Of a stretch of 64,000 nucleotides of DNA, positions 3,001 to 22,114 are shown one piece after another. Position 1 is the first letter of the stretch, and every line of letters begins with the position of its first letter. The notes beneath the pieces were generated by a model. It had not been told where the DNA came from and made no database searches. It saw nothing but the letters and a program-made list of their open reading frames with translations. Origin of the DNA: an uncultured Eubacteriales bacterium (GTDB lineage: Bacteria > Bacillota > JAAYKD01); the NCBI GenBank assembly GCA_964425745.1, contig CAYRNW010000012.1, positions 250 to 64,249 of the forward strand, written 5' to 3'. The translations under genes and the position numbers were made by a program.

Positions 3001-6000
3001 GACACTGTGGCATCTGCCGGGATGGGAACACCAGCAACAAGAGATTGGCCGATTCTAAGTGAACCGCTCCACTCACCAATTCCTGTAATGATGCATGGCT
3101 GTATTGGTCCCTGAACTCCACTATAGACTTCTTTTGAATATGCTCCTGCACCTACCGCTTTTACACGGATATATTGTAAATAATCATCAACAGTCAAAGT
3201 GTATGATGTTTCAGTAGCTCCTGGAATATCTTGGAATGGCCCATCCTCCTCAACTCCGCGTTGCCATTGAATCGTTGCCTGTGCACCAGCGGGTGACAGA
3301 GTGTCCTTATTAACTGTTAATGGAGAATTGACTCTCAGGGTTCCAGTAAATGCGCCAATCGAAGTCAGCTCTATTGCAGAACTCTCAACCACCGGTCCAA
3401 CTGAATCACTAAGCCGCGAACCAGTATAAGCTCCAACGCCTGTTACCTGTACTTTGAAAGAGCAATTCAAATCATCCTCTGTTAGGGTAATAGCAGCTTT
3501 GGTAGCACCTGACACTTCAACAAAGTCGGTGCCTGAAGTATTAGATTTCAGCCATTGATAATTCACTGTTGCGCCTAGCGGAATTACTGTACCTGCATGC
3601 AAGGATTGACTGACTACAGTTGTTCCAACAATGGAAGAGATCGAGGATAAATTGCTTGGCTGAATCTGTGATGTAGGTGCACTTTCGACCCAACCTGTAT
3701 ACCCACCTGACCCTGTTGCAACAACTTTTAAAATTGAATTGTAATCTGAAGCTTGAAGCAAATAGGTTTTTGAAGTTGCACCTGGAATTTCACTATAGGT
3801 TTCTGCACCCGGCGATTTTCTTAACCACTGATAGGTTATTGAAGCCCCATATGGAGTTGTATTACCCGCGGTTAACAAACTTCCGACTCTTGTACTTCCA
3901 GTAATATCGGCGATAGCAACAACTTTATAAGGTGACGAATTAATCTCCCCAAATTTCTGACTCGTAGCACCCCCACTATAAGCAGACCCAGATGCTGCTG
4001 AGACTATTACATCGATAAAATGATCCTGATCATCCTCTGTTGTCGTATAATAATAGCTATTTGCATCATCTATTGTTTCAATTTGCCAGCCTAACAAAGG
4101 ACTATATTTATGTCTTCTCCATTGGTACGTGACGTTTGCTCCTTCAGGAACAACGGGTCCACTCGTAACAGTTCCACCAACATTGGTGCTACCTGTGATG
4201 TTGCCAACCGAAACAATGCTTTGACGGCCGGTGACCAAGAGATTTGACCCCGTCTTCGTATCAGTATAAATTCCCGTTCCGGTGACGACAGGGCGAACAT
4301 AAAAGTTATAATCGGCTGCTGTCAACGTGTAAGTCGAGGAAGTGGCTCCCGGTATATTCGTGTAATTCGTCCCAGCAGAATCGGATCTTTGCCACTGAAC
4401 AGTATAGGTCGCTGCTCCTGGATCCACTGATCCAATCGTCAAATTCTGACCGACCGTGGCAGTTCCGGTCGTGTTTGTAATCGAGTTCAGTGCAATTAGA
4501 GTTGTTCCACTGGCAGAGATGATGTTGGTGGCAGGGCTCTCGTACGAACCTTCATACGACCCTGTGCCTGTAACAACCAAGCGAATTGTTTTTCCTTCAT
4601 CTGTGGTCGTTAAAAGGTAGCTATTCAATGTGGCACTAGGGATATCTTGGAATCCGCTGCCATCGTTGCGTTGCCACTGATAACTCACAGAGGCCCCTAC
4701 GGGTGTAATGCTTCCCGCCACCAATGTTTGGTTGACAATGGTTTGACCTTGAGGTGCTAAAACCTGGCTAATGATTCCTTTAGAGATGAAATCCGTAGGG
4801 CTACTGATGACTTCACCAAAATACGTTCCAAACCCTGTTGCAATAACTTTCATGTATTTGGCTTGGTCATTTTCAGTTAACGTATACTGGCTGTATGTGG
4901 CTCCAACAATTGCCTCGTAAGTGCCATCTACTTCTGCCGATCGTAGCCACTGGTAAGAAATCGTAGAACCATGAGGTAATACCACCCCAGCGGATAAGGT
5001 TTGTCCTACTCGAGTCACACCGGTGATATCGCTAATGGAAGAGATGGCGTTGGGGCTTCCAACCGGACCGGTGTTGTTGCTATATAAGGTGTCAGAATAA
5101 CCATTTTTGCCGGTAACAGAAACACGAATAAATCGATTGTTCACATCGGTTGAAATCATATAGGTATTGGATGTTTCACCAACAATATTCACGTAGGTTG
5201 TTCCGTTATAGTATTGCCATTGGTAATTCACTTCCGCCCCAACCGGTAAAACAGTGCCTGCCGTGAGAACCTGGCCTACCTGTGCTTTACCAATCACATT
5301 AGATATGGACGTAATGGGTCTCGTTACAATAGGACCAAATGGAGGACTCGATACACCCCCTATATTAGTGTAATACGTTCCTGCTCCATATACTGTTAGA
5401 ATTAAGTGCTTGTTTAAGTCTTGATAAGTAGTTGTATACGATGAAGTGGTTGCTCCACTTATTGAAGTATACGGTCCAACAGCGAAATCCGCACGCTTCC
5501 ACTGATAGGTTACGGTTGCACCAATGGGGTTTGTCACTCCTGCTTGTATAGTTTGACCAATTTGTGGGTACCCGTTTATAGCCCCAATCGCTGTCACTTC
5601 TACGGGTTGTGCCAGAACTGGGCCGGAGAATGTGCTTAGTCGGATCCCACTGTATAAATTTGTTCCTGTGACTTGAACTTTTATAAATCTCCCAATATCG
5701 TCATTGCTGACTACATAGATATCTGATGTTGCACCGGCAATGGGTAAGTAATTCTCTCCGTTGGTATCTGAGATCAGCCACTGATATATCACAGTGGCAT
5801 CTGCTGGGGTCACAGCCCCGGCTGTTAAGACAGAAGTCACGGAAGCGGTACCACTAATCGTACCAATGGCAGTAAGGGGAGCCGTTGCAATCGGCCCAGC
5901 AAATCGACTAGTAACGGAACCCGTATAGGATCCGGAACCGGTAGCAATCACTTTAAAGAAATAACCTTTATCTGCCCCGGTGAGCACCAACGTTTTTGCA

Positions 6001-7742
6001 GTAGCTCCATTTATGGGAAGGTATGACCCATTCAGGGTCTCGCTACGAGTCCACTGATACGTAACCGATGCGCCATACGGTGAAACGGTTCCGGCTGTCA
6101 GGGTTTGGAACACCTGGGTAATTCCAATGCTGTCAGCAATGGAAGTAAGAGAGGTTAAGGGCTCTGTATCGGATACAGGCACTACATAACTGCTGTTTAC
6201 CGTTCCGGTATAAGCCCCGGTGCCTGAGACAGAAACTCGAACATACTTGTTAACGTCGGTCGCAGTCAAATCGTAAGTAGAAGTTGTAACACCCAGATTA
6301 CTATAGGGACCATTTGGCGAAGTTGCTCTCTGCCATGAATATACCACGGTCGCTCCTGCTGGTAAAACACTACCGGCTGTTATGGTTCGCCCTTCTACAG
6401 CAGAACCACTAATGTTCCCAATCGATTGCAGTGATCTTGGAGCAATGGGTCCATGAGCATCGCTTTCTTTGCTACCGGAATACGACCCGGAACCAACGGC
6501 AATTACCTTTAAATAATCTCCGACATCATCAGGAGCAATGGTATAGGTTTGGTTCGCAGCTCCACTGATGAGGTTCCATGGCTCATTACCATCTTCCGAT
6601 TGATACCACTGATACGATGCAGTAGCTCCAACGGGTTCTAAAACACCTGCTGTGACTGTTTGCCCCACTTGAGCACTTCCTACGATGGTGCCAATAGATT
6701 GTAAAGATATACCTGCCGCTGCAGCTACAACCCGTCCACTACGAACTGAAGTCACGCTCCCGGAATATTCCCCGGTAGCCGTTGCCACCACACGTAAATG
6801 ACGATTGAGATCATTTAATTCAGCCGGTTCATCATCTGGAACGTAAGTAGGCGAATTAGCACCAAGAATATCTGTATAGATACTTCCTGAAAGGTCGGAG
6901 CGCTGCCATTGATACGTTACTGTTGACCCCAAAGGGGTTACAGTTCCCGCAGTAAGGGTTGTCCCAATTGTGGTCGTTCCCATAATGGCACCTATACTGG
7001 TAATTGGTGTCTTACTGCTTCGTATAGGGCCCAATTCTGCATAGACCGTATTACTGTAGGTATTGGAGCCGGTGGCATAGACTCGAACAAACTTATCCAC
7101 CATGCTTTCTGTTAGTGATAAGCTGTTCGTGGCTGCACTGCTAATATTGCTGTAATCTCCATTCATAGAATCGGCTATTTTCCACTGATAGGTTGCTGTT
7201 GCTACAGAAGGAGTTAACGCCCCTGCAAAAAGTGTTTGACCGGTTATGGGTTCTCCAACTATATTGGCGATGCCTGTAATGGGTGTCGCAGCAACAACAA
7301 CGGGACCTGCCTCAGCACTATAGATGGTGTTGATGTAATCACCGGTACCTTTTGCTGCAACGCGAATGTATCTGTTGTTATCATCGAAAACCAAGGTGTA
7401 TTTTTCCTGATTCGCTCCGGGGATGTCAATAAATACACCAGTTCGCGAATTCGCTCTTTGCCACTGGTAAGTAAAAGTCGCTCCACTTGGCAACACAACC
7501 CCAGCTGTTAGTTCTTCGTATTGTTTGGTTGTTCCGGAGATGTTCCCAACCGATTCCAATCGAAGCCCCATATTTCCAGAGACAAAGGACAATTCGGTCT
7601 GAATCGTATCGAGGACATACTTCGAAGCTGTAGGGCTCGAGGCAATGATTGCCGTAACTAATACTGTAGCAAGTAAGATTAATGCGAATAAATTATTAAG
7701 AGGTATAGAAGATTGTTGAACGTTCTTTCGTTTAAGTCTCAC
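1..7742 (-). CDS. Giant secreted Ig-like repeat protein B (putative adhesin), partial: 3' end lies beyond the left window edge; at least 2580 aa
   Basis: Not in the ORF track because it has no stop inside the window. GTG at 7742 follows SD GGGAGG. N-terminus reads MRLKRKNVQQSSIPLNNLFALILLATVLVTAIIASSPTASKYVLDTIQTELSFVSGN. Manual translation at ~7500, ~2050 and 3-120 stays in one frame and is paralogous to 8049..15695. About 20 YQW-type repeats are followed by APV/Big/AIR9-like modules. Confidence 0.92.
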   Translation of the reverse strand, partial: MRLKRKNVQQSSIPLNNLFALILLATVLVTAIIASSPTASKYVLDTIQTELSFVSGNMGLRLESVGNISGTTKQYEELTAGVVLPSGATFTYQWQRANSRTGVFIDIPGANQEKYTLVFDDNNRYIRVAAKGTGDYINTIYSAEAGPVVVAATPITGIANIVGEPITGQTLFAGALTPSVATATYQWKIADSMNGDYSNISSAATNSLSLTESMVDKFVRVYATGSNTYSNTVYAELGPIRSSKTPITSIGAIMGTTTIGTTLTAGTVTPLGSTVTYQWQRSDLSGSIYTDILGANSPTYVPDDEPAELNDLNRHLRVVATATGEYSGSVTSVRSGRVVAAAAGISLQSIGTIVGSAQVGQTVTAGVLEPVGATASYQWYQSEDGNEPWNLISGAANQTYTIAPDDVGDYLKVIAVGSGSYSGSKESDAHGPIAPRSLQSIGNISGSAVEGRTITAGSVLPAGATVVYSWQRATSPNGPYSNLGVTTSTYDLTATDVNKYVRVSVSGTGAYTGTVNSSYVVPVSDTEPLTSLTSIADSIGITQVFQTLTAGTVSPYGASVTYQWTRSETLNGSYLPINGATAKTLVLTGADKGYFFKVIATGSGSYTGSVTSRFAGPIATAPLTAIGTISGTASVTSVLTAGAVTPADATVIYQWLISDTNGENYLPIAGATSDIYVVSNDDIGRFIKVQVTGTNLYSGIRLSTFSGPVLAQPVEVTAIGAINGYPQIGQTIQAGVTNPIGATVTYQWKRADFAVGPYTSISGATTSSYTTTYQDLNKHLILTVYGAGTYYTNIGGVSSPPFGPIVTRPITSISNVIGKAQVGQVLTAGTVLPVGAEVNYQWQYYNGTTYVNIVGETSNTYMISTDVNNRFIRVSVTGKNGYSDTLYSNNTGPVGSPNAISSISDITGVTRVGQTLSAGVVLPHGSTISYQWLRSAEVDGTYEAIVGATYSQYTLTENDQAKYMKVIATGFGTYFGEVISSPTDFISKGIISQVLAPQGQTIVNQTLVAGSITPVGASVSYQWQRNDGSGFQDIPSATLNSYLLTTTDEGKTIRLVVTGTGSYEGSYESPATNIISASGTTLIALNSITNTTGTATVGQNLTIGSVDPGAATYTVQWQRSDSAGTNYTNIPGATSSTYTLTAADYNFYVRPVVTGTGIYTDTKTGSNLLVTGRQSIVSVGNITGSTNVGGTVTSGPVVPEGANVTYQWRRHKYSPLLGWQIETIDDANSYYYTTTEDDQDHFIDVIVSAASGSAYSGGATSQKFGEINSSPYKVVAIADITGSTRVGSLLTAGNTTPYGASITYQWLRKSPGAETYSEIPGATSKTYLLQASDYNSILKVVATGSGGYTGWVESAPTSQIQPSNLSSISSIVGTTVVSQSLHAGTVIPLGATVNYQWLKSNTSGTDFVEVSGATKAAITLTEDDLNCSFKVQVTGVGAYTGSRLSDSVGPVVESSAIELTSIGAFTGTLRVNSPLTVNKDTLSPAGAQATIQWQRGVEEDGPFQDIPGATETSYTLTVDDYLQYIRVKAVGAGAYSKEVYSGVQGPIQPCIITGIGEWSGSLRIGQSLVAGVPIPADATVSYKWEINIAILGWTDTGITTNSVLIPEKLGLLNWKTVNRQIRVTITGTGAYSGSQQKTIGYILEEEPVNPLTSIGAIQGTTSPGQTLTAGTVLPLGATVTYQWQRAMNPQDTFENIAGATNNQYMVQESDLGMYFKVVATGSGSYSGTVTSSVKGPVVGFGEAIPILAISDILYTTKASNITLTAGVVTPLGAEVTYQWYKSNTTIPTGEYTAIEGATSNAYTFADSEAEDYYFKVEVTGSESYSGTIMSNYTGPVTLSPTALTHVDIGGIIQVGETLTAANLLPEGATATYQWQVFTAADGVYADIPGATSSSYALQPNQYNYYMKVIATGSGAYTGQVSAQTDTVVIGLIESPVISMVAPVVGATPQTTSQVEGVNSSVDFVVTNVVWNEPMTPLGKFNTDTSYSATVTMESKNMKTFVPSFAPIVSGSSSISDITVSDTGVVGNTVEFTVNYDATEPLKVSSLTILSQPTKLSYTEGSDDVLDLSGLEFTELYNDGSTATVSFASGTPAGYETSPMNGSALTGDNHLYEVSITHTDSNVTIGTAPLSVEAPPKATNVSILGELVKGETLTGYYVYSDVNGDEVDTDSTYYEWIVDSVSVSSGAGSSYLTYLLTAANAGKTVFFKVTPVAERGTLTGSVVSSAESLPVATSALSAATVNMTTPVVGATPENSGDVETLTSDPNFTVSSLSWSPALTTGGKYAADTAYTATITLTSKNGTAFSATPFRPSIVGASTISNTVRSGNGAGNTVTFLAEFPATVALQLVSIEATTQPSKLVYKEMTEILSLVGLVITETYNDGSTVVVEFIDGVAIGFNASPANGSTLTAALHNGQPVTITHDATLQTTETATLTVTEQHAPVASNVSISGTLRVGQRLDGSYEYSDDDLDGEGATSYQWYADDEAIPGATSTTYTLTTNERGKTIRFQVTPVASAGITPGSAVLSSPTTTILQTIDIAAISGITAPSWKNTPDSTVNETDQYIATIAWLSPPTLRNDGTFR

Positions 7743-7808
7743 ACATCCTACCTCCCGACGTCAGCACACATTTAGCTTGAATGCATAAATTTCTATAGGC
7801 GGAACAAT

Positions 7809-7912
7809 AAAAAAACCGACCGCATTCCTGCGGTCGGACGGTCATCACTTCAACAGTGTTCAGACTCCAGACTTTGCGTCCTACTCTTTCAAGTAGTTTG
7901 CCAATAAACATC
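7809..7912 (-). ncRNA. c-di-GMP-I (GEMM) riboswitch with overlapping intrinsic terminator
   Basis: Minus strand reads GGCAAACTACTT-GAAA-GAGTAG-GACGCAAAGTCTGGAGTCTGA...ATGACCGTCCGACCGCA-GGAA-TGCGGTCGG-T7. It has the GGCAAAC, GAAA tetraloop, GACGCAAA and tetraloop-receptor motifs of class I. Confidence 0.9.
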
Positions 7913-7939
7913 ATAATTTGTCAAATTTAATCTGCCGAT

Positions 7940-7968
7940 ATTGTAACTTCTATTCAGACATATGTCAA
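7940..7968 (-). promoter_or_regulatory. Sigma-A promoter for giant protein B
   Basis: TTGACA (7968-7963), 17 nt spacer, TACAAT (7945-7940), directly upstream of the riboswitch. Confidence 0.8.
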
Positions 7969-8002
7969 GTATAATTTTTCACAAATTTCGAATTTTGCAA
8001 AC

Positions 8003-8035
8003 AAAAAGCCATCTCTTGATTTGAGATGACTTTTT
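8003..8035. terminator. Intrinsic terminator after giant protein A
   Basis: AAAAAGCCATCTC...GAGATGACTTTTT hairpin with A/T tracts on both sides, 14 nt past the stop at 8049. Confidence 0.75.
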
Positions 8036-8048
8036 ATTTTTTACTTAC

Positions 8049-11000
8049 TTAATTAGGAACCACTGCTTCAGTCGGATCACTCTGAACGGGATTACCTGGT
8101 GTTAGTCCAGTTGCTGCAAACGGTGTAACTTCAAAGCGAATCACCTTTCCTACATCACCGGCTTGCACCACATAGGTAGTTGTCGTTGCACTTGGTATTT
8201 CAACTGCATCTGCGTACCATTTGAAGGTGGATGTTCCTTGTGAATCACTGTTGGCGTCATAATATTCGTAAGACCCATTCAAGGGTTGTCCTACTTGAGC
8301 CGTTCCGCTGATGCTTACAGAACTTGCTACCGGTGCCACCTGCGCTTGTACCGCAAGGTTGCTGGTCGTAGCTGTTTTGGATGAGTCTGTGTGGGTGATT
8401 GTTATTGGTTGCCCATCATGATCTGCATTCGTCAATACAGTTCCATGAGCCGGATCAGCGGTATACCCTGCTGCTACTCCATCGGTAAAGGGGACTTGAA
8501 TTTGTGACCCATCGTTATGAGTAGCGGTAACAACTAAACCGTTAAGGGATAAGGTTGCATCCGTCATTTCAACATAGCTCATATCGGAGGGAGGTGCTTG
8601 AATGCTTAAACTATCAACCGCCAAAGCTCCGGTTTGCGGAAAGGAAACTGTGAAGGTAACCGTATTACCAATACCCAATCCGCTGGTGGTTGTAGTTCCT
8701 ACTGAACTCGCAGTTGTCACCGTGGGTGTAAAGAAAGTCCATTGGAACGTAGAATCATTCTTAGATGTCAAGGTGACCGTCGCTGTATACACCGTGTCCG
8801 CTTTGAATTTTCCAGCCGCAGTCAACGCTTCGTTCCAGGTAAGACCCGTTACCGTATAATCGTCATTTGCAGTTTGGGTTTCTACATTTTCTAGAGTATC
8901 GGGTGTAGTACCTAAGACCGGAGCAACAATGTTTACCGAAGCACTGGTGATGGTATTCGTTGCAACCGGTAAGGTTGTAGTGCTTGTAACCGCAGCACCG
9001 GTTGAACTTCCGCTTGCCGCAGCAGGGGTGACTTCTAAGAGAACCGTTTTACCGATATCGGCTGCTGTCAATGTATAGCTTAAATAACTACTTCCCGCAC
9101 CAGCAGAAACCGATACTGAGTCGATAAACCATTCATAATATGTAGTATCCGTATCTTCTGCATCACCGTTGACATCATAGTAGGAGTAGTTTCCTGTTAG
9201 TGCCGAATTTGCCGCTGCAGTCCCTGTTATAGTAACATTGCTCGCACTGGGTGGAGCTTCTACGAAGAGGTTGGCGGTAGTTGCTGTTTTCCCCGAAGCC
9301 GTATGAGTGATAGTCACGGAGCTATCGTGCTGAGCTCCCGTGAGGGTAGATCCATCTTCTGGAGAAGCGGTATATCCTGCTGCAGTGCCATCGGTGAAAA
9401 TTGTTGTGGTAATAGTACCATCATTGTTGGTTTCAGTAACCACCATTCCATCGAGTGCCAAAACACCATCGGTAGTTTCTACATAGACTAATTTGGTCGG
9501 TTGGGTTGTTACAGAGATAGAGGTTGGCATGAGAGCCCCGGTTGGTGCAAAGGTAGCAGTGAAGGAGACTGTATTTCCCACATCGCTACCGGAGGTGGTG
9601 GTCGTGCCAACCGAAGCTGCACTGGCTACCATGGGTGTAAAGGGAGTTGAAACAAAAATCTTGGTATTCTTGGAGGTCAAGGTCACGGTGGCAGTATACG
9701 CGGTTCCTGCTTTGAATTTTCCAAGGGGAGTTAATGCTTCGTTCCACACGAGGCCCGTCACTTCATAATCCGGATGATTGGTAGTGCTTTGCACCTGAGC
9801 TGCTGTTTGAGGAGTGGCCCCCAAAACTGGAGAAGCCATCGTAACTTGAGCCGAACTCAACAAGCCAATAATCTTGGATGTGGTATCTGCAAATTTAGAC
9901 CCCGTATATGCTCCACTACCGGTTGCAATCACCCGAACATAGTAGTTATATTGAGCTGGTTGCAGTGTATAGGTAGAGCCTGTTGCACCCGGTATGTCGG
10001 CGAAAACTCCTCCGGGACCGGTAAAGACTTGCCATTGGTAGGTTGCAGTTGGGTATGTGTCACCTGGCCATAAATTCTCAGCGGTTAAATTCACTGCGGA
10101 TAACGTCTCTCCCACTTTGTTAATCCCACTTACTTGGACACTAGTTAACTCTTCAGGTGTAACTACTACCGGTCCGGTTGCATTGCTTAAAGCCGTTCCG
10201 GAATAGCTACCTGAGCCGGTAACTTCTACTTTGAAGTAAGATCCCAAAGCTTGGTTCACCGGGATTGTATAAACACTGGATGTGGCTCCTGAAATGTTCG
10301 AGTAGGTTCCACCGAGTGAAGATGCAACCTTCCACTGATAAGTTACCGTTGCTCCCATGGGAGATACTGTTCCGGCAGTCAAAGTTAATTGCGGGACCGT
10401 TGTGTATAAGATATCCGATATAGAAGCAATTTGTATAAATGAACCGGAGGAAATAACCGGTCCGGTGGATGCTGAAGTCAATACCCCTGAATAATTTCCT
10501 GTTCCAGTAGCAACAACCCTCAAGTAGTAGTTCAAGTCCCCCGCTGGAATGGTATAACTGTTCGTTGTAGCACCCGCTATGTTCTGGAATGTTCCACTTG
10601 GAGTTAAACTTCTTTGCCATTGGTAATCTACAAATGCTGAAGCTCCGCTTGGTGTTATTGCACCGGCTGTTAAGGTTTGACCAACTGCTGAAGTACCAAC
10701 AATTGAGCCCATGGCTTCCAGCGTTTCTAAGGAACTATATGCTACGATATCTACGGTAGTTCCAGTCGTTCCTAGCGTTCCGGTATAAGCTCCCGTTCCG
10801 GTGATAATGACACGAATATCCCGTCCCACCGTGGAAGCATTATTTCCGGGTTGCCTGTCTGGAATCAATACCGACTGTGTTGAAACACCGATATTGTTCC
10901 AGCCTCCGCCTCCGCCTCCGCCTTGAGAAATCTCCCATTGGTAAGTCACCGTTGCTTCTGCAGGGTCAATGGAGAACGCAACCAAGGATTGATTGACTGA

Positions 11001-14000
11001 TTGCTCCCCTGCCGGGGTATATTCTCCAACTCTTGTTATGGGCCTTTTCCCAATCTGAGCGGTGGCATTTGATCTGAATACTCCACCAAAATTCCCGGTA
11101 CCAGCAATCTCGACCTTAATATACTTTAGATAATCTTCTACCGTTGTATAATATGTAGAAGCTGTAGCTCCGGGTATGGGGATATAAGTACCCCCAGAGG
11201 TATTTGATCTATACCATTGGTACGTCACAGTTGCTCCGCTTGGCGAGACCGACGTGGCGTTCAACGTCCGATTCACTTGGAATCGATTTCCGGATTCGGT
11301 TATCACCACATTCGTAACACTCGTCAGAGGGGTGTCTATCACTGGACCAATAGCACTACTTGTGATGGTGCCGGTATAGAAACCCGTTCCTTCTACCTTC
11401 ACTTTGATATAAGAAGTTAGATCCTCGGTTGTTAAGGTATACGTTTCTGTATTGGCTCCATCAATGGCTGAATAACTACCTTCCAGAGTCGAAGCTCTCA
11501 TCCATGTATAGGTTGCAGTTGCCGATACAGGGGTAATCGCTCCCGCCGTTACAACTGAGCCAACCGTTCTACTCCCACTTATAGAAGACAACGCAGCTAA
11601 AGCTCCCTTACCGATGAGTGAAGTCGGTTCACTCTCGGCCCAGCCATAATACCCTCCCGAACCTGTAATTACGACCTTTAAATAATGGTTAAAATCTTGA
11701 TCCGTCAAACGATACGTTGAAGCAGTCGCACCTAAGATTGCTGAATACGTCTCGGCATTGGCTGCGCGACGATACCATTGATATGTTACCGAAGCACCAA
11801 AAGGAGTGGTTGTTCCTGCGCTCAATAAGTTGCTTACGGTTGGATCTCCTACGATAGGACTAATCGCCGTGATTTTGCTTGGGTCTTCTTTCAGGGGACC
11901 GAAGAAATAACTATCGACTGAACCAGTGAATCCTTTCGATTCATCCCCACTGACTCTGACTTTGTAATAATATTTCTCTTGACCTGTAGGAGTTGTGAAC
12001 TCGTCTGGAAATTTGTAATAATAGTCTGTTGCTCCGGTTATATCGTAAAAGGTAGCTGTTAATGGAGTTCTAGAACTGGTATACATCCACTGATAGGTAA
12101 CAGCGGCACCAGCAGGAGTTACTTCTCCGGCGAGCACTAACTCACTTAGAGCCGGTGTACCAATAATGTTTGCAACAGCTGTTATGGTTTGCATTCCCGT
12201 TACTAGCCTGCCTGTTACGGTTACGACACCTGTATAAGCTCCTGTTCCGGTTACCACGGGTCGAACGTACTTCTCAAAGTCATTTGCTGTTAAAACGTAG
12301 GAAGTATTAATGGCACCGCTGATGTTGCTAAAGTTGATATTATCTTCCGATCGTTGCCATTGAACACTATAGGTTGCACCGCTCGGTCCTACGGTACCGA
12401 TTGTAACCGTATCCCCTACCGATAAGGTTCCACTTGGAGTGAATCCTCCCATGGTGATCGTTTGCGGGACTGTACCACTGGGTTGAATCGCAAGAGTTGG
12501 TTGACTTTCAGCGGTTCCTTCATAGGAGCCGGTTCCGGTCACAAATAACTTAATTGTTTTCCCTAAATCATCTTCCGTCAGTAAATAACTACTCAGCGTT
12601 GCTCCGGGAATGTTGGTATAAGAAACCCCATCACTGCTTCGCTTCCATTGATATGTTACCGTGGCACCCACCGGAAGAATCCCACCGGAAGAAAGGGGTT
12701 GACCAACAATTGTTTGTCCCAAAATATTGCCCACAGAATCCACGGTTCCCAACATGATTTTATCGGTTGCATTACTTCTGACTTCATCGTAATACAACCC
12801 AAATCCGGTTGCTATAACTCTCATGTACTTGTTGTGGTCTGCACCGGTCAATGTATACGTCTTTTGAGTAGCTCCCGAAATCGCCTCGTAAGTACCATCG
12901 ATTTCTCCCGAACGTAACCATTGATAAGAAACCGTTGCTCCATAGGGGAAGACGACCCCGGCGGTTAAGATTTGACCCACTTGGGTTATACCGGTGATAT
13001 CACCTATGCCTTGAATCAAATTAGGATCTCCGGTTACGACCGGTCCTGTACTAATACTCGAAACGGTGTCAAAATAACCCTGATTACCCGTGACTGAAAC
13101 TTTGATACTCTTACCAAGATCAGCAGAGGTTATGATATATGTATTTGAAGTCTCTCCAACAATACTCGTATTATCGCTATACTTCCATTGATACGAAACA
13201 TTTGCACCGATTGGAAGTACTGTTCCTGCGGTTAACACTTGGCCCACTTGCGTCTTACCGATGACATTCGATATAGATTCGAGTGGTCGAGCCAGAACAG
13301 GACCAAAGAAAGCACTCGTAATTCCGCTTGGGGGGGTTGCATAAACTCCGGATCCCCAAACCGTCACTTTAAAGTACTTGTTTAAGTCCGCTGCTGTTGT
13401 GGTGTAAGTAGCTGAATTCGCACCACTAATTGCTGTATACGGTCCTCCGCTTACGTCGGCTCGTGACCATTGGTAGGTTACTGTTGCACCTAAAGGTGTC
13501 GTGTTTCCGGCTGTTAACATTTGACCCACTTGAGCGGTTCCACTAATAGTACCTACTGCAGTGATATTGGTAGGGGTAAGAACCACCGGACCAGAATATT
13601 GGCTTGTGACAGTTCCACTGTATAAATTGATTCCCGTGGCTTGAACTTTAATGAATAAACCGATGTCCGTCTCTGTCACTTGATACGTATTCGAATTTGC
13701 TCCTGCAATCGGGATATAGTTTTCACCATTGATATCTGATCGTAACCACTGGAAGTTCACAGTTGCTCCCGAAGGTAATACGGTGCCAGCAGTCAGAAGC
13801 TGACCGTTCGTTGCTGTTCCACTAATATTGCTAATGGACATCAAAGGAGCCGCAGTAATCGGTCCGGCATATCTACTTGTGACGGATCCGGTATATAATC
13901 CTGAACCTGTAGCGGTAACTTTGAAGTAAAATCCTTTGTCTGCTCCTGTTAGTACCAATGTTTGAGAGGTTGCACCTGAAATAGGTAAGTATATCCCATC

Positions 14001-15695
14001 CATCGAACTACTCTTCAACCATTGATATGTTACAGTTGCACCATAAGGGGAAACCGTTCCTGCTGTCAAAGTTTGAAATACCTGAGTTAAGCCAATACTA
14101 TCTGCAATTGAAGATAGATGGGTAAGTGTAGTCCCAGCGGCTGAGGGAACAATGTATTGACTTAGCACTGTACCATTATAAGCACCGGTTCCGATTGCTG
14201 CCACACGAATATAGGTATTGACATCGGAAGCACTCAAGGTATAGGTACTACTATTTGCTCCAATAACGGTGTATGATCCACTAGGATTCGTCGTGCTATA
14301 TCTTCTCCACTGATAATCTACCGTCGCTCCACTCGGTAAAACGGTACCGGCTGTTACAACTTGCCCTTGTATTGCGGAACCACTAATATTTCCAATGGAT
14401 TGTAATGGCATAGCAGCCACAGGTCCGAGAGCATTGCTGTCTAACGTGCCGGTGTAAGATCCGGAACCCGTCACAGTAACTCTAAGATGCTTTCCAAAAT
14501 AACTAGCTGCTATGGTATAGGTATTACCGGTTGCACCAGATATTATGTTCCATGGAGCACTTCCGTTATCGGAAAAATACCATTGATACGAGGCAGTTGC
14601 TCCACTAGGAGCAAGCGCTTCTACCGTAAGAGTCTGTCCTACTTGTGCCGTGCCGGTTATCGTTACAGGTGCCGTTAGAGAAATACCTGCTGTTACTACC
14701 GGTCCACTTCGTACCGAAGTGACCGTTCCAGAATAATCCCCGGTTCCGGTAGCAACGACTCGTACATATCGGTTTAGGTCTTCTGGATTCACTGGCACAT
14801 AGGTGGAACTCGTTGCACCTTCAATGTTGCTAAAAATACTACCACTGGTATCGGATCGTTGCCACTGATAGGTCACCTCTGCTCCTGAGGGAGTCAAAGG
14901 TCCCGCAGTTAAAGTATTCCCAATGGTGGTGGTTCCAACAATGGGGTCAAGATCGGTGATTTGAATTTTATCGCTGATAATAGGACCCATGCTGGCAAAT
15001 TCAGTTCCACTATAGGTGTTTGACCCGGTTGCATAGACACGCACAAATTTATCGATCATGGATTCGGTTAACAAGAGCGTGATATTGGTCGCTCCACTTA
15101 TATTGACGTAAGTCCCATTGAGAGTATCGGCAATCTTCCATTGGTAGGTAGCGGTGGCACCGGTGGGAAGCAAGCTGCCCGCAGTGACCGTTTGTCCTAC
15201 TACCGCATTGCCCTGGATAGCACCCATGGACTCCAAATCTATGGCGGCAACGACAACCGGGCCAACTGTAGAACTGTAAACAGTGCCGGAATACTCTCCG
15301 GTTCCTTTGACTGCGACTCGAATGTAATGATTATTGTTCTCAATATCCAAGTAGAACGTTTCTAACGTCGCATCAGGAATATCAATAAATTCTCCCTCCA
15401 GAGAATTGGCTCGTTGCCACTGTATCGTATAAGTGGATTCTTCATCCGTTACTACAGTGGCAGTCAATGTCTCATACTGGCGGGTTGTGCCTAATATGCT
15501 AATCTCCGCAACAAGTTCTTGTGCAAAATCAGCGGAGAAGAATGTCAAATCTGCCCCAACCGAATCCAAAACATATTTCGACAAAGAGGGACTGGAAGCA
15601 ACAAAAGAAACGATGAGTACAGTAGAAGTAAGCAGAAGCCCTAAAGCTCTGCCAAGTTTTGAAGAATGGTTGATCACCGTTCTACGTAACCTCAT
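8049..15695 (-). CDS. Giant secreted Ig-like repeat protein A (putative adhesin), 2548 aa
   Basis: SD AAGGAGG then ATG; hydrophobic signal ending SLS|KY. Twenty ~90-aa repeats (G-x-L-T-A-G...P-x-G-A-T-V-x-Y-Q-W...I-x-G-A-T...Y...D...Y-x-x-V...G-T-G-x-Y-x-G) resemble AIR9/A9-type Ig folds. Then 2x [APVLGATP domain + bacterial Ig group-3-like domain + AIR9-like domain]. No C-terminal LPXTG, SLH or TM segment. Confidence 0.92.
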   Translation of the reverse strand: MRLRRTVINHSSKLGRALGLLLTSTVLIVSFVASSPSLSKYVLDSVGADLTFFSADFAQELVAEISILGTTRQYETLTATVVTDEESTYTIQWQRANSLEGEFIDIPDATLETFYLDIENNNHYIRVAVKGTGEYSGTVYSSTVGPVVVAAIDLESMGAIQGNAVVGQTVTAGSLLPTGATATYQWKIADTLNGTYVNISGATNITLLLTESMIDKFVRVYATGSNTYSGTEFASMGPIISDKIQITDLDPIVGTTTIGNTLTAGPLTPSGAEVTYQWQRSDTSGSIFSNIEGATSSTYVPVNPEDLNRYVRVVATGTGDYSGTVTSVRSGPVVTAGISLTAPVTITGTAQVGQTLTVEALAPSGATASYQWYFSDNGSAPWNIISGATGNTYTIAASYFGKHLRVTVTGSGSYTGTLDSNALGPVAAMPLQSIGNISGSAIQGQVVTAGTVLPSGATVDYQWRRYSTTNPSGSYTVIGANSSTYTLSASDVNTYIRVAAIGTGAYNGTVLSQYIVPSAAGTTLTHLSSIADSIGLTQVFQTLTAGTVSPYGATVTYQWLKSSSMDGIYLPISGATSQTLVLTGADKGFYFKVTATGSGLYTGSVTSRYAGPITAAPLMSISNISGTATNGQLLTAGTVLPSGATVNFQWLRSDINGENYIPIAGANSNTYQVTETDIGLFIKVQATGINLYSGTVTSQYSGPVVLTPTNITAVGTISGTAQVGQMLTAGNTTPLGATVTYQWSRADVSGGPYTAISGANSATYTTTAADLNKYFKVTVWGSGVYATPPSGITSAFFGPVLARPLESISNVIGKTQVGQVLTAGTVLPIGANVSYQWKYSDNTSIVGETSNTYIITSADLGKSIKVSVTGNQGYFDTVSSISTGPVVTGDPNLIQGIGDITGITQVGQILTAGVVFPYGATVSYQWLRSGEIDGTYEAISGATQKTYTLTGADHNKYMRVIATGFGLYYDEVRSNATDKIMLGTVDSVGNILGQTIVGQPLSSGGILPVGATVTYQWKRSSDGVSYTNIPGATLSSYLLTEDDLGKTIKLFVTGTGSYEGTAESQPTLAIQPSGTVPQTITMGGFTPSGTLSVGDTVTIGTVGPSGATYSVQWQRSEDNINFSNISGAINTSYVLTANDFEKYVRPVVTGTGAYTGVVTVTGRLVTGMQTITAVANIIGTPALSELVLAGEVTPAGAAVTYQWMYTSSRTPLTATFYDITGATDYYYKFPDEFTTPTGQEKYYYKVRVSGDESKGFTGSVDSYFFGPLKEDPSKITAISPIVGDPTVSNLLSAGTTTPFGASVTYQWYRRAANAETYSAILGATASTYRLTDQDFNHYLKVVITGSGGYYGWAESEPTSLIGKGALAALSSISGSRTVGSVVTAGAITPVSATATYTWMRASTLEGSYSAIDGANTETYTLTTEDLTSYIKVKVEGTGFYTGTITSSAIGPVIDTPLTSVTNVVITESGNRFQVNRTLNATSVSPSGATVTYQWYRSNTSGGTYIPIPGATASTYYTTVEDYLKYIKVEIAGTGNFGGVFRSNATAQIGKRPITRVGEYTPAGEQSVNQSLVAFSIDPAEATVTYQWEISQGGGGGGGWNNIGVSTQSVLIPDRQPGNNASTVGRDIRVIITGTGAYTGTLGTTGTTVDIVAYSSLETLEAMGSIVGTSAVGQTLTAGAITPSGASAFVDYQWQRSLTPSGTFQNIAGATTNSYTIPAGDLNYYLRVVATGTGNYSGVLTSASTGPVISSGSFIQIASISDILYTTVPQLTLTAGTVSPMGATVTYQWKVASSLGGTYSNISGATSSVYTIPVNQALGSYFKVEVTGSGSYSGTALSNATGPVVVTPEELTSVQVSGINKVGETLSAVNLTAENLWPGDTYPTATYQWQVFTGPGGVFADIPGATGSTYTLQPAQYNYYVRVIATGSGAYTGSKFADTTSKIIGLLSSAQVTMASPVLGATPQTAAQVQSTTNHPDYEVTGLVWNEALTPLGKFKAGTAYTATVTLTSKNTKIFVSTPFTPMVASAASVGTTTTSGSDVGNTVSFTATFAPTGALMPTSISVTTQPTKLVYVETTDGVLALDGMVVTETNNDGTITTTIFTDGTAAGYTASPEDGSTLTGAQHDSSVTITHTASGKTATTANLFVEAPPSASNVTITGTAAANSALTGNYSYYDVNGDAEDTDTTYYEWFIDSVSVSAGAGSSYLSYTLTAADIGKTVLLEVTPAAASGSSTGAAVTSTTTLPVATNTITSASVNIVAPVLGTTPDTLENVETQTANDDYTVTGLTWNEALTAAGKFKADTVYTATVTLTSKNDSTFQWTFFTPTVTTASSVGTTTTSGLGIGNTVTFTVSFPQTGALAVDSLSIQAPPSDMSYVEMTDATLSLNGLVVTATHNDGSQIQVPFTDGVAAGYTADPAHGTVLTNADHDGQPITITHTDSSKTATTSNLAVQAQVAPVASSVSISGTAQVGQPLNGSYEYYDANSDSQGTSTFKWYADAVEIPSATTTTYVVQAGDVGKVIRFEVTPFAATGLTPGNPVQSDPTEAVVPN

Positions 15696-15745: not shown

Positions 15746-16261
15746 CTAATCGATTTGTTCCGCGTTAATGGTAATACGAATGGTCTGAGTTTTATTTGCA
15801 TATTCACTTCCTGTTTCTAATTCGTTCCAAACGATATTGAGCGTGTAGCTGTGAGTGATGTTTTCACCCATTCCTAAAATTGTCCAACCGTCTCCATCAG
15901 AAGGATACGATCCTACTAAGTTCTTAGTTAATGGTAGCACGTTTTCTGGCTCAACACTCACTTCAATCTTATATCTCAACAGAACCTCGTTCCTTATCTC
16001 GATCAAGTCCTCATTCTTAAAGTTACGAATTTGAAATTGATAAGCTACGGCATCCCCCGGCTTCACATTTTCAAAAGAAAGGCTTTCTTGCTGTAACCCA
16101 TTATACGTAGCTATCCCCGGAACATACTCCAGTACAGGCTTTGCAACCCTAGCCGTATCGGTTCCGTCGACTATGGTTCCATATTTCGAAAAGGATACGC
16201 CTGTCACCACGAGAGTGACAATAATTAGATAGACTAAATATAAAGGTAGCATTCGCCTCAT
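15746..16261 (-). CDS. SipW-cognate exported protein, TasA/camelysin-like minor subunit (putative)
   Basis: Signal ...VTGVSFS|KYGTIVDGTDTARVAK shares GTDTARVAK exactly with 18407..19234. It has VKPGD-x-x-x-Y-x-F and a C-terminal IRITINAEQ strand, and lies next to sipW. Confidence 0.75.
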   Translation of the reverse strand: MRRMLPLYLVYLIIVTLVVTGVSFSKYGTIVDGTDTARVAKPVLEYVPGIATYNGLQQESLSFENVKPGDAVAYQFQIRNFKNEDLIEIRNEVLLRYKIEVSVEPENVLPLTKNLVGSYPSDGDGWTILGMGENITHSYTLNIVWNELETGSEYANKTQTIRITINAEQID

Positions 16262-16285: not shown

Positions 16286-16789
16286 TTAAGAGTTTGATTT
16301 TCGTTTGTTGAGAAGATTGGGGACTTCCACCAGTGCAATCGCCGTTAGGGCAATCAATAGCAACCCGAAGGGAGTCTTCAAAAATAGTATAAAATTACCA
16401 AATCCCGGTATGGTGAAAACCACTTTCCCGTTAATTAGAGCTAATGGTGTTGGCTCATCGGTCGTATTGTTAGCATCGCCCTTGGTAATCATCTGGTCTC
16501 CTTCTATGGAAACGATACGATGTGTACAAAGACTGTTACCCCATTCATAGGTGACGATGTCACTGACCTGGTATTGGTTTTGCTCACGGATGATCAGCAA
16601 ATCACCTGCTGAAATCGTCGGTTCCATGCTTCCGGAGATGACAATGACTTGGCCGAATCCAAAAATGGTGGGCAACTCTTGTTTGAAAACTAACTGCATA
16701 GTAAGTAGATAAAGGTTACCGATCAAGATTATCGCAAGCATAGCTACTACAATTTTCTGACCGATACTTAAGATTTTATTCAAATTCAT
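16286..16789 (-). CDS. sipW: Signal peptidase I, SipW (S26B, ER-type)
   Basis: ISGSMEP (catalytic Ser), THRIV (His general base rather than Lys), TKGDANN; N- and C-terminal TM segments. Confidence 0.92.
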   Translation of the reverse strand: MNLNKILSIGQKIVVAMLAIILIGNLYLLTMQLVFKQELPTIFGFGQVIVISGSMEPTISAGDLLIIREQNQYQVSDIVTYEWGNSLCTHRIVSIEGDQMITKGDANNTTDEPTPLALINGKVVFTIPGFGNFILFLKTPFGLLLIALTAIALVEVPNLLNKRKSNS

Positions 16790-16804: not shown

Positions 16805-18265
16805 TTATTGTCCCGTAATCAAGATTTCTAAAATATACATGGGCGGATCGATTTGATTGCCTATGGCGGTATCGAGGGTGTTATTGGAAGCATCCCACTC
16901 CCACTCCAAGGTATAATACACCGAAGAGCTACGGGGTAATTGTGCAAACTCTACGATCTCAGATGCGGTTCTCCAAGCATTCCCACCTACATAATCATCG
17001 CCCACGATTCCTCGTTTTAATCGGTAAATCATGGGAATATTGGGCACGTTTGCATCGGAATCCTGAAGATCTATGGTGATATCTACATCAAACATTTGCG
17101 GATTACGGATTTTGAAAATAAATTTCCCATTGGATCCTGGAGCAATGACATTCTTTCCGTCAATACTCTGAACACCGTTGTTTCCTGCTCTCGGTGCAAA
17201 GATATCGACCGAGGTTACTTTCTGCCAAGTGCGACCGATCATGGTGTAATCATCGGAAACATAAATCCGAGGAGTCGTATCTTCTGGTGGATCCGGAGGT
17301 GGAGGCGGAGGTGGAGGCGGAGGGGGCGGATCAACTGGATCCGTTGGATTTGTTGGATCAGTGGGGTCTTCCGGATCTGTCGGGTCGGTTGGATCCGTTG
17401 GGTCCGTAGGATCTGTAGGATTGGTTGGATCTTCTGGTTCAATGGAACCACCTGGATTATCTGGATCGACCGGATCTTCAGGCTCTACAGGTTCTTCCGG
17501 ATCTGTCGGGTCCGTTGGATTGGTAGGATCAGTGGGGTCGGTCGGGTCTTCAGGTTCAATGGAGCCCCCAGGTTGATCCGGATCGTCTGGGTCTGCAGGG
17601 TTTACAGGATCCGTTGGACTAGTAGGTGTTTCAAAATCATTATCGAAGTCAAACTTGATAACTAAATCATCTCTGTTCTCTTCCCCTATACTAGTTCCGT
17701 TTTCTCTATTTGGGTCGATTTCTAAAATCACATTCAGAACTTGGACCTCTAAGGGGATTCGAATTAAATAACCACCGGCATCGAGCTTAATAATTTGTTT
17801 TACATTAATGAAGGCATCGAGAAGGAAGTTCACTTTGGTTGTTGCAAGAACAACACCATCGCTCACAACGCTAATCGTATGACTACCTTCTTCAACATCT
17901 AAAAATTCGAAACGACCAAGGGAGTCTGTTTCGGTGTAGCGAGGTTCACTACGCAACTCAATTGTGCCGTTGGCATAAGGTGTTCCATCTGTATATTGAA
18001 CGATTCCCACAACGTTAATCTGATAAATCGGCGTTGGATCTGGGGTTACCGTAGGTTGGCCAAAGTCAATGGTGATGGTATCGATAATCTGACCGGTGTA
18101 GTAGTCTCTATAGACGATTCGTCCGATTAAGTAACCAATCATGGAGGAGGTTAACATTAAAGAGAAAACGAGTAAGAGGATGAATCTGCGAAGCCTTCTG
18201 CGACGAATCTGTCCTGTCGTCTCTTCGGCTTCTTCATAGAGCGCTTCTTCCCAAAAAAACCTCAT
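16805..18265 (-). CDS. Membrane-anchored protein: N-terminal TM, carboxypeptidase-regulatory/prealbumin-like domain, Pro/Asp/Thr stalk, C-terminal TasA-like domain
   Basis: RRRRLRR followed by a TM helix; GxVxYTDGTP..RYTETDxxGxFxFxxVxxGxHxI motif; PTD repeats; C-terminal NVIAPGSNGKFIF, YTLEWEW and DTAIG match motifs of the 18407..19234 protein. Confidence 0.75.
   Translation of the reverse strand: MRFFWEEALYEEAEETTGQIRRRRLRRFILLLVFSLMLTSSMIGYLIGRIVYRDYYTGQIIDTITIDFGQPTVTPDPTPIYQINVVGIVQYTDGTPYANGTIELRSEPRYTETDSLGRFEFLDVEEGSHTISVVSDGVVLATTKVNFLLDAFINVKQIIKLDAGGYLIRIPLEVQVLNVILEIDPNRENGTSIGEENRDDLVIKFDFDNDFETPTSPTDPVNPADPDDPDQPGGSIEPEDPTDPTDPTNPTDPTDPEEPVEPEDPVDPDNPGGSIEPEDPTNPTDPTDPTDPTDPTDPEDPTDPTNPTDPVDPPPPPPPPPPPPDPPEDTTPRIYVSDDYTMIGRTWQKVTSVDIFAPRAGNNGVQSIDGKNVIAPGSNGKFIFKIRNPQMFDVDITIDLQDSDANVPNIPMIYRLKRGIVGDDYVGGNAWRTASEIVEFAQLPRSSSVYYTLEWEWDASNNTLDTAIGNQIDPPMYILEILITGQ
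17294..17630 (-). repeat. Imperfect 9-bp (Pro-Thr-Asp) tandem repeats, two GGSIEPEDPT modules and a 12-Pro run within the anchor gene
   Basis: Repeating gga-tc/ggg-tc units are visible in the DNA; the 12 consecutive Pro codons lie at 17294-17329. Confidence 0.9.
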
Positions 18266-18406: not shown

Positions 18407-19234
18407 TTAGTTGATTTGAGTAGCGGTGATTCGTAAATTCAAGGTCAATGACGGTGCATCATCAGTTAGGAACAAATCTCCCAAATCAGTATCTGCTTTG
18501 TCATAAGCAGCCAACTTAATTGTAGAATGTGGTACAACTACAGTCGCTGCAGAATCAGAATAGTATGTAGTTGCTGGGTTGTAAGGATTAGTGGCCAAAG
18601 TGGCTGGAGCAGTATAATACATAGCCACATTTGCTTTTGCAACTTCAACTTCTGACCAAGCTAAATATGTGCTGGACCATTCAAAAGGCCATTCCCAACC
18701 AATCGTGTAAGTTGTAGCAATCGATGCGTTAGCAATATAATCAACAGTTAATGAACTTAATTCTGATTCTAAGTCTGCCAAAGTGAAATATGTTTTCGCT
18801 CCCCATGCTGAACCAGTCCAGTAATTAGTCCCATTATAAATAGTCCAATTGAGCGGTTCATAAGCCTTAGTTGATACGAGCCAGTTATCCTTTATAGAGG
18901 AAGCTCCAAAAGAAACTCTTACGGCTACTTCAGGAATACCAGCTAAAGTAAAGGTATAACTCCCAGAAGTTCCTGGGGCTACTACATTCTCTGTTGATAT
19001 CACGGAATTTGGACCAAGCATGAAGGTTGCATCATCCTTGACATAAGTTAAGTCAAACATACCATCACCAGCAGAGTCAGCAGTAATGGTCACTCCCCAC
19101 TTCGCCACTCTGGCAGTATCTGTTCCGGTTGCTTCCGTCACATACTTAGCATAAGTGCTGGAAACCATAGGCATCGTCACTAAGGTCAATACCATAGCGA
19201 GTAAGCCTAATCTTAAAACCCAATTTTTTTTCAT
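18407..19234 (-). CDS. SipW-cognate exported protein, TasA/camelysin-like major fibre subunit (putative)
   Basis: SD GGAGGT then ATG at 19234 (ORF track starts at 19249). Signal ...VSSTYA|KYVTEATGTDTARVAKW resembles TasA TWA|AF and CalY TFA|FF. NVVAPGTSGSYTF, YTIGWEW and terminal LRITATQ motifs; directly follows sipW. Confidence 0.8.
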   Translation of the reverse strand: MKKNWVLRLGLLAMVLTLVTMPMVSSTYAKYVTEATGTDTARVAKWGVTITADSAGDGMFDLTYVKDDATFMLGPNSVISTENVVAPGTSGSYTFTLAGIPEVAVRVSFGASSIKDNWLVSTKAYEPLNWTIYNGTNYWTGSAWGAKTYFTLADLESELSSLTVDYIANASIATTYTIGWEWPFEWSSTYLAWSEVEVAKANVAMYYTAPATLATNPYNPATTYYSDSAATVVVPHSTIKLAAYDKADTDLGDLFLTDDAPSLTLNLRITATQIN

Positions 19235-19302
19235 TTTTCTTACCTCCATCTAATTTTTCTATTTGGAGACCGAATTATCGGTCAAATCCCCATGTGTCTT
19301 GT

Positions 19303-19950: not shown

Positions 19951-20001
19951 ATATAAAACCCCCTGTTCCAAAGTTTGTTTTGAATACTCCGGCAGCTAAT
20001 T

Positions 20002-20112
20002 AAAAAAAGTCCGACCGCAAGAAGATTGCGGTCGGACGATCATGACACAATTTTGTGCTTTAGATTCCAGACTTTGCGTCCTATTTTTTCAAATAGTTTG
20101 CCAAAAGTTAAA
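20002..20112 (-). ncRNA. c-di-GMP-I riboswitch with overlapping terminator, upstream of the sipW operon
   Basis: Minus strand reads GGCAAACTATTT-GAAA-AAATAG-GACGCAAAGTCTGGAATCTAA...ATGATCGTCCGACCGCAA-TCTTC-TTGCGGTCGGAC-T7; nearly identical to the copy at 7809. Confidence 0.9.
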
Positions 20113-22102: not shown

Positions 22103-22114
22103 GGTTTCTCCCCC

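Follow-up and report, generated by a model that had tools for sequence, protein, structure and literature searches.

The 64,000-nucleotide stretch studied here (positions 250 to 64,249 of contig CAYRNW010000012.1, assembly GCA_964425745.1, from an uncultured Eubacteriales bacterium; hereafter the window) encodes two very large repeat proteins with predicted signal peptides, the products of gene A and gene B. It raises the question of how such giants are kept at the cell surface without any recognisable anchor of their own. An earlier interpretation, made without database searches (hereafter the sequence-only reading), had proposed that a short N-terminal tag resembling the donor strand of the Bacillus subtilis fibre protein TasA plugs them into the end of a fibre. 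In this study, we find that gene A closes a conserved operon encoding two SipW-type signal peptidases, a major and a minor fibre subunit, and an anchor protein. We put the probability that the giants are SipW-processed components of this fibre system at roughly three in four. The genomic context also suggests that the mature giants use their first 16-20 residues as a donor strand, which would enter the free distal groove of the fibre, a proposition for which we consider the chances evenly balanced.

Gene A (8049..15695; genes in the leftmost 26 kb of the window lie on the minus strand, to which all coordinates given below for the operon, the leaders and the giants refer) encodes 2548 amino acids (aa), comprising a signal peptide, a tag, immunoglobulin (Ig)-like repeats and other Ig-like modules at the C-terminus. 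The body is built from some 20 Ig-like repeats of the AIR9/ZirU type, each around 92 aa long and with a YxW motif, and matches PF23197 at 1.2e-58 and the ZirU-type NCBIfam model NF040485 at 3.6e-124 across 15 stretches. The signal peptide (15579..15695, residues 1-39) has a typical n-region, h-region and c-region, the last ending in SSPSLS, and its junction aligns with those of the fibre subunits. As the repeat register starts the first Ig-like domain at about residue 60, some 20 residues after the predicted cleavage site lie outside the repeats. They constitute the tag (15519..15578, residues 40-59, KYVLDSVGADLTFFSADFAQ), whose residues 40-55 read KYVLDSVGADLTFFSA (15531-15578). Gene B (1..7742) starts with a GTG at 7742 that has GGGAGG 8 nt upstream, and 2580 of its 2632 codons lie inside the window. 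Its product is 53% identical to that of gene A over the full length and has an AIR9/ZirU-type repeat match at 3e-56. A signal peptide with a basic n-region, a hydrophobic core and the small-residue c-region SSPTAS is followed by a tag (7563..7622, residues 41-60, KYVLDTIQTELSFVSGNMGL) whose residues 41-56 read KYVLDTIQTELSFVSG (7575-7622). Both predicted mature N-termini are placed and spelled here as they were in the sequence-only reading. The only Pfam families above threshold in the two giants are the Ig-like IG_AIR9 and SCAB-Ig; gene B has an additional PKD-like match below threshold.

The same reading had described gene A as ending in ...DPTEAVVPN* with no LPXTG, SLH, choline-binding or transmembrane (TM) segment. 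This was borne out, and neither a sorting signal nor a wall-binding domain was found at the C-terminus by Pfam search, hydrophobicity and motif checks. The 3' end of gene B, which lies outside the window, was recovered from three metagenome contigs (L001-L003) that carry an identical gene A. The complete protein of 2632 aa ends in ...VVTATFPRTN* and contains no SLH domain, choline-binding domain or TM segment. In both gene A and the complete gene B, an LPXTG-like motif near the C-terminus is absent and there are no hydrophobic windows beyond the N-terminal signal peptide.

The operon that ends in gene A has the order sipW1-major-anchor-sipW2-minor-gene A. SipW1 (19303..19971) is a SipW-type (archaeal/endoplasmic reticulum-type) signal peptidase I of 222 aa that matches TIGR02228 at 2.7e-32 and contains the motifs SGSMEP, THRIV and GDNN; its match to the SipW model NF046067, at 7e-29, is below that model's cut-off. 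SipW2 (16286..16789), the second SipW-type signal peptidase, has 167 aa and matches TIGR02228 at 1.3e-21. The major fibre subunit (18407..19249) has 280 aa, or 275 aa from the second ATG, with predicted cleavage at STYA|KYVTEATGTDTARVAKWGV, and the minor subunit (15746..16261) has 171 aa with predicted cleavage at VSFS|KYGTIVDGTDTARVAKPVL. An [AS]|KY junction after the signal peptide is common to the major subunit, the minor subunit, gene A and gene B, and we infer that this is where the SipW peptidases cut.

Relatives were collected by a pattern scan with one genome per species, and 89 non-redundant loci were examined. Major-subunit relatives are encoded in 553 species genomes, mostly of Oscillospiraceae, Acutalibacteraceae, Ruminococcus, Lachnospiraceae and other uncultured Clostridia. 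The major-anchor-SipW2 core is kept in 75 of the 89 loci, and the minor subunit follows SipW2 in at least 35. The last gene encodes a protein with an [AS]|KY junction and no ARVAK motif ('KY-other') in 35 of the 89. These proteins span a continuous size range of 180-2632 aa, plus one of 5218 aa in locus L004. One of them has DUF285/leucine-rich repeats and the remainder have no Pfam family. The giant AIR9-type cargo is restricted to a small clade (the window, L004, L006, L093 and L094), to which L090-L092 add cargo genes of the same type that are cut. The minor subunit co-occurs with the giants, and its gene directly adjoins the giant gene. We found no paper describing this fibre system. The fibre operon is widespread in anaerobic Clostridia and undescribed. 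The leucine-rich-repeat protein, a 577-aa 'KY' protein with DUF285/BspA-like repeats, occupies the cargo slot of L061 (13596-15329), a locus with two minor-subunit/cargo pairs. In L009, a 175-aa protein (15250-15777) encoded behind a large SpaA/DUF7601 protein starts ...CGTTFA|LMYRQTQSVNNQLEAAY; its N-terminus looks camelysin/TasA-type, and two kinds of SipW substrate may coexist there.

Across 12 giant-type N-termini, including orthologues and paralogues, the S-x-S before the cleavage site, the site itself, the following K-Y-V-L and a serine at +15 are conserved, and SKYVL is invariant although the signal peptides diverge. Between KYVL and +15 the tags are variable; positions +11 and +13 are mostly hydrophobic, and +12 is Ser/Thr. 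This pattern bears on one rival explanation for the missing C-terminal anchor, in which the N-terminal hydrophobic segment is not cleaved and holds the giants in the membrane as a signal anchor. It is the sole hydrophobic segment in either giant, and its n-region is long and basic, as such an arrangement would have it. However, the residues at -3/-1 are small (S-L-S and T-A-S), the small secreted subunits and TasA have this junction too, the locus provides two dedicated signal peptidases, and SKYVL stands invariant directly behind the h/c-region. We therefore consider a retained signal anchor highly improbable.

The subunits themselves share traits with donor-strand fibre proteins. The major subunit has 2137 homologues and belongs to no Pfam family. 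The N-terminal extension (AKY, ARVAK.GV) is the most conserved part of this family, with A34, K35 and Y36 followed by A46, R47, V48, A49, K50, G52 and V53 as invariant positions. In the AlphaFold2 model of the major subunit, residues 35-47 have a predicted local distance difference test (pLDDT) score below 50 and precede a beta-sandwich. The model of the minor subunit, a shorter paralogue of the major one (hhalign probability against the major-subunit profile 93.8%), has a pLDDT of 87 and no secondary structure in the first 19 residues of the mature chain. The donor strands of TasA and BsaA are likewise conserved yet unstructured in the monomer (PMC9674648; PMC11580942). A Foldseek search with the minor-subunit model returned the TasA fibre (8aur_A) as the top match (E 2.8e-3, TMq 0.47, probability 1.00). 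Of the 30 matches that follow, nearly all were subunits of fibres built by donor-strand complementation, among them FimF/FimG, the archaeal TasA-like AbpA, CfaB, the PapG pilin domain, PapA/E, CS20, Saci_0406 of the Sulfolobus thread and CsuA/B. The poorer model of the major subunit, full-length and including the signal peptide and a 60-aa insert, gave weak matches of the same kind; nothing scored below E 5e-3 and TasA was outside the top 50. A pilin/TasA-like fold of the minor subunit is thus weakly indicated by modelling. The lysine at +1 was considered as an isopeptide residue and judged unlikely to serve as such a lock, because it is often replaced by Arg, as in many minor subunits.

The third structural class is the 486-aa anchor protein (16805..18265), which consists of an N-terminal TM helix preceded by a run of arginines, a CarboxypepD_reg-like domain, a stalk and a C-terminal subunit-like domain. 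The stalk, a Pro/Thr/Asp-rich low-complexity segment of about 125 aa (~17231-17653), contains DPT/NPT repeats, two GGSIEPEDP units and 12 consecutive prolines; judging from its sequence, its length would probably suffice to span a Gram-positive wall. Residues 369-484 match the subunit core (hhalign probability 91.5%, E 8.7e-7), a homology that starts at the APG motif and continues through the final strand, and the KY...ARVAK extension is absent. Because this subunit-like domain has no donor segment, the protein is predicted to be acceptor-only, taking a strand and not donating one, and to form the base of the structure. Homologues in other loci are consistent with a base: 51 of 85 end in xPxTG[D] followed by a TM segment and a basic tail (for example L007 10832-11716, L008 10831-11601 and L009 6808-7248, the xPxTGD-plus-TM type being found in 48 other loci), and a further 13 of 85 have a C-terminal TM segment. 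The sorting signals include SPKTGD, SPITGD and PPQTGD, which we take to resemble the (S/P)PxTG of clostridial sortase B substrates. The TM-plus-stalk type occurs in the complete giant-bearing loci (the window, L004, L006, L093 and L094) and in L090, whose cargo gene runs off the contig. It is also present in L053, which showed no giant in the part of the locus examined.

An acceptor-only base has a consequence for polarity. In a linear polymer formed by strand exchange, the free donor strand would be cell-proximal and the free groove distal, so the end opposite the anchor would be available to a donor-only protein. The giants would be such proteins, because they have no subunit-like domain of their own. 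On this basis we propose a variant of the TasA/TapA-like donor-strand fibre. The secreted components would leave the cell through Sec, and SipW cleavage at [AS]|KY would bare an N-terminal extension of 16-20 residues. The 486-aa protein would be held in the membrane by its N-terminal helix, its proline-rich stalk carrying the subunit-like domain, with groove and no donor strand, through the wall. Major subunits would polymerise by inserting their extension (KYVT..ARVAKWG) into the next subunit, and the anchor would capture the free-strand end of the fibre. At the opposite end, the minor subunit would occupy the free groove first, followed by the giant tag (KYVLD....LSF.S). The minor subunit is the most likely partner of the tag in view of the adjacent genes and its co-occurrence with the giants. 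The outcome would be a fibre anchored in the wall that presents, at its distal end, a repeat protein of about 2,500 residues lacking any anchor motif itself. The plug idea of the sequence-only reading thus gains from the position of the giants in a SipW-dependent fibre locus and at the conserved operon end, from the shared [AS]|KY junction and the missing anchor, and from the acceptor-only base and the TasA/pilin-like fold of the minor subunit; what it loses is a demonstrable homology of the tag to the TasA donor strand.

The anchor also admits a shorter route, in which the giant tag inserts straight into the C-terminal acceptor domain of the 486-aa protein with no shaft between them. The 486-aa protein would then be a dedicated non-covalent anchor, and fibres of major and minor subunits would be built on other anchor copies. 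The TM-plus-stalk anchor, with its acceptor at the extreme C-terminus, is found mainly in giant-bearing loci, and the stalk length estimated from sequence would put the acceptor outside the wall. However, the minor subunit too co-occurs with the giants, its gene adjoins theirs, and anchors of the wider family go with ARVAK-type strands. We regard this direct attachment as rather improbable and retain the distal insertion as the preferred reading.

The literal likeness of the tags to TasA does not carry that reading. The sequence-only reading was right about TasA itself: the 8AUR chain does begin with AFNDIKSKDATFASG, and residues 28-38 are the donor strand (PMC9674648). We aligned the tags locally to the first 20 mature residues of TasA, with 20-mers from the open reading frames (ORFs) of the window and shuffled tags as controls. 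The score of the gene A tag is equalled by 5.5% of the window 20-mers and by 24% of its own shuffles, and that of the gene B tag by 0.75% and 1.3%, respectively; for orthologue tags, between 0.07% and 73% of the window 20-mers score as well. The resemblance of the gene A tag to AFNDIKSKDATFASG is therefore not above chance and is not conserved in orthologues, and that of gene B is marginal, so the description of the tags as TasA-like in sequence is not confirmed. Neither Pfam Peptidase_M73 nor NCBIfam matches the tags or the subunits. A scan of four N-termini against NCBIfam (E <= 10) returned no SipW-related family, which is weak evidence of absence because the HMMER filters drop most matches above E ~0.1 and the presence in that library of TIGR04088, the model for SipW-cognate signal peptides, was not checked.

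Several further observations weigh against the proposed insertion, which itself rests on inference from context. Every Foldseek E-value obtained with the minor-subunit model is above 1e-3, and the best TM-score is 0.47. The hidden Markov model (HMM) of Peptidase_M73 (PF12389) has no match at E <= 10 to either the minor or the major subunit or to the giant N-terminus, and is absent from 30 of 30 tested members of the subunit family. An hhalign comparison of that family with TasA covers the signal peptide and junction only, with a probability of 7.7%. It pairs GGTWA|AF of TasA with SGTYA|KY of the subunits and so supports the predicted cleavage site, nothing more. A profile search of PDB sequences did not find TasA. 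The giant tags lack the ARVAK segment that is the hallmark of the subunit extensions. What is common to giant tags and the subunits of the locus is K-Y at +1/+2, with V at +3 shared with the major subunit only; the gene A tag additionally shares G at +8 and D at +10 with the subunits of its own locus. In an ungapped position-specific scoring matrix (PSSM) comparison, the similarity of the gene A tag to the small class-3 tags is modest beyond KYV (p ~0.004), and the tags of gene B and the orthologues show no such signal. An HMM of nine small class-3 tags, searched against all window ORFs, did not recover the giants. Homology of the giant tags to the 'KYIKSV..GNVTFSA.LA' tags was accordingly dropped, as the HMM missed the giants and the PSSM signal was limited to gene A. 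The K/R-Y at +1/+2 could simply reflect the substrate specificity of SipW. Finally, the type IV pilus genes adjacent to the operon are decayed, and the system could be non-functional in this genome if export needs them.

Alternatively, the giants may be SipW substrates that are not plugged into the fibre at all, with KYVL representing only the P1'-P4' preference of a dedicated SipW. They would be freed as matrix proteins, or their Ig-like repeats would bind them to fibres, glycans or other cells. In favour of this explanation, only [KR][YF] right after the cleavage site is common to all classes, ARVAK is absent from the giant tags and comparisons with other tags by HMM and PSSM are weak. The TasA junction also aligns here, so the motif may belong to the signal, and BsaC of Clostridium perfringens, a large operon-encoded protein, is secreted free (PMC11580942). 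However, conservation in the giants extends beyond P2', to V, L, the serine at +15 and the mostly hydrophobic +11 and +13, despite the varying signal peptide. The operon-end position is kept in 35 loci with very different bodies, and, with an acceptor-only anchor, the far end of the fibre would have a groove that something must fill. We consider release without insertion unlikely and keep the giants, in the preferred reading, at the distal end of the fibre.

The sequence-only reading had also proposed that the tag, if it acts as a plug, is a portable display tag. A homology search with residues 1-150 of gene A found one protein, and a profile of the giant N-terminus searched against 1.84 billion representative proteins gave six matches, all AIR9-type except P0146. 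The latter, an unrelated 501-aa protein with nine tandem copies of SSKYVLDAVGDAS, was set aside as a chance or low-complexity match and not a fibre component. Because this tag variant is found only on AIR9-type repeat proteins, portability holds only for the wider KY class. Extending the argument to that class gives a general four-part clostridial pilus with a pair of SipW peptidases, a major subunit, a minor subunit and an acceptor-only base anchored by sortase or a TM segment, whose distal end would take any SipW-processed 'KY' donor-strand protein, with cargo from 180 to more than 5,000 residues. We offer this generalisation tentatively and hold the odds to be against it. If it is true, nature would have provided, in these roughly 20 residues, a display handle that can be transferred to other proteins.

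Both transcription units, the fibre operon and gene B, are preceded by a riboswitch for cyclic di-GMP (c-di-GMP). The operon has a promoter-like site TTGACT-17-TACAAT (20151..20179), a full-length c-di-GMP-I aptamer in the sipW1 leader (20024..20112; RF01051, 63.4 bits against a gathering score of 35) and an intrinsic terminator with a 12-pair stem and T-run (20009..20037), whose 5' arm overlaps the 3' end of the aptamer. A terminator-like hairpin with T-rich flanks (8010..8028, no strand assigned) stands right after the gene A stop. Gene B has its own promoter-like site TTGACA-17-TACAAT with 11/12 matches (7940..7968), a second full-length c-di-GMP-I aptamer (7826..7912, RF01051, 61.5 bits) and an intrinsic terminator (7816..7837), whose 5' arm CCGACCGC overlaps the 3' strand of the aptamer closing helix. 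This overlap of aptamer and strong terminator, downstream of a near-consensus promoter, suggests an ON-switch layout in both leaders: binding of c-di-GMP would let transcription read through, in one unit from sipW1 to gene A and separately into gene B, and the fibre would be produced at high c-di-GMP levels. c-di-GMP-I riboswitches also lie ahead of the operon in L004 (in tandem, 9265-9351 and 9478-9564), L006 (9116-9204), L093 (6838-6926), L094 (6079-6167) and the distant locus L012 (8872-8964). In L004, a gene encoding GGDEF and HD domains (13589-14698) lies inside the operon, between the minor subunit and the 5218-aa giant. The riboswitches and this gene place the locus in a c-di-GMP-controlled sessile programme, and riboswitches before both transcription units fit a role in adhesion or biofilm formation.

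Among known systems, the tapA-sipW-tasA operon of B. subtilis is similar in having a dedicated SipW-type peptidase. It also encodes TasA, a secreted beta-sandwich subunit whose N-terminal extension is the donor strand and which is the best structural match of the minor subunit. TapA is an accessory protein whose donor-like N-terminus complements TasA without TapA being a shaft subunit (PMC9674648, PMC10151520). The present operon differs in encoding four structural classes where that of B. subtilis encodes two, in its pair of SipW genes and in an anchor that is explicitly acceptor-only, and its subunits show no detectable sequence homology to TasA beyond the signal peptide. Whereas TapA is small and thought to lie near the cell, the donor-only proteins here have 2,500-5,200 aa and would be distal, judging from the position of the anchor. 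The BsaA/BsaB/BsaC-SipW system of C. perfringens is likewise a clostridial SipW operon with TasA-like paralogues and a large accessory protein. Donor-strand exchange has been modelled for BsaA, which has a link to type IV pilus genes; paralogues with LPXTG occur in some strains, and the formation of heteropolymers has been proposed (PMC11580942). The 'exchange-and-lock' subfamily of BsaA is marked by an Asn(donor)-Glu-Lys isopeptide triad. The +1 lysine here is often Arg, which argues against that residue as a lock. No donor tag is reported for BsaC (a vWA protein), and the neighbouring type IV pilus genes are decayed in the genome of the window.

The same three-part logic of anchor, shaft and tip is found in the F-ENA/F-Anchor/F-BclA system. 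Its anchor shows a subunit-like domain on a long stalk, the shaft subunits have an N-terminal hook, and the F-BclA tip fibrillum docks through an N-terminal motif that mimics this hook (PMC11844507). However, the F-ENA fold is unrelated (DUF4183 trimers), and the fibres occur on spores and not on vegetative cells, with collagen-like stalks and no SipW. Chaperone-usher pili (FimH-FimG-FimF-FimA, Pap, CFA/I and Csu) have an Ig-like pilin fold that the minor and major models match weakly in Foldseek, and would also share the adhesin-adaptor-shaft-terminator order and donor-strand complementation. In those pili, an acceptor-only tip adhesin takes a strand from the subunit below, so the polarity proposed here would be reversed; moreover, the present system is Gram-positive and has no chaperone or usher. 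Sortase-assembled Gram-positive pili also have a tip, a shaft and a base, and the base here ends in an xPxTG signal in most loci. Unlike in those pili, pilin motifs and sorting signals are absent from the remaining components, the giants have no LPXTG, and linkage would be by strand insertion instead of transpeptidation.

The principle of a donor tag or tip mimic is therefore already known from TapA on TasA fibres and F-BclA on F-ENA fibres. New in the present system are a subunit family without a sequence link to TasA, a putative heteropolymer of four classes served by two SipW genes, a base that is explicitly acceptor-only, riboswitch control, cargo of up to thousands of residues with a predicted donor tag, and a proposed polarity that runs counter to chaperone-usher pili and to the way TapA is usually pictured. 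If the preferred reading is true, it would show how gut and digester Clostridia bring very large adhesins to the surface and keep them there without a recognisable anchor. It would define a widespread fibre system without a Pfam family, with relatives encoded in 553 species genomes and more than 2,000 protein clusters, and tie it to c-di-GMP through riboswitches. Gram-positive donor-strand assembly would extend from homopolymers (TasA, BsaA) to ordered heteropolymers with a base and a tip, and the short peptide and its socket would be a pair testable as a display tag.

The type IV pilus cluster beside the operon (21050-26576, minus strand) is decayed in the window. PilB has two frame changes and about 60 missing residues, a frameshift near 26016-26023 affects PilC, and an internal stop interrupts PilM. 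PilN is likewise broken; the intact members are PilT and the AraC-type regulator. Dependence of the fibre on these genes was considered and appears unlikely in this genome, with PilB, PilC and PilN broken. The cluster is intact in L006, L093 and L094. Elsewhere, the window contains tRNA genes at 26944-27016 and 27030-27103 (minus strand) and at 27242-27314 (plus strand), and a thiamine pyrophosphate riboswitch at 39622-39731 (plus strand).

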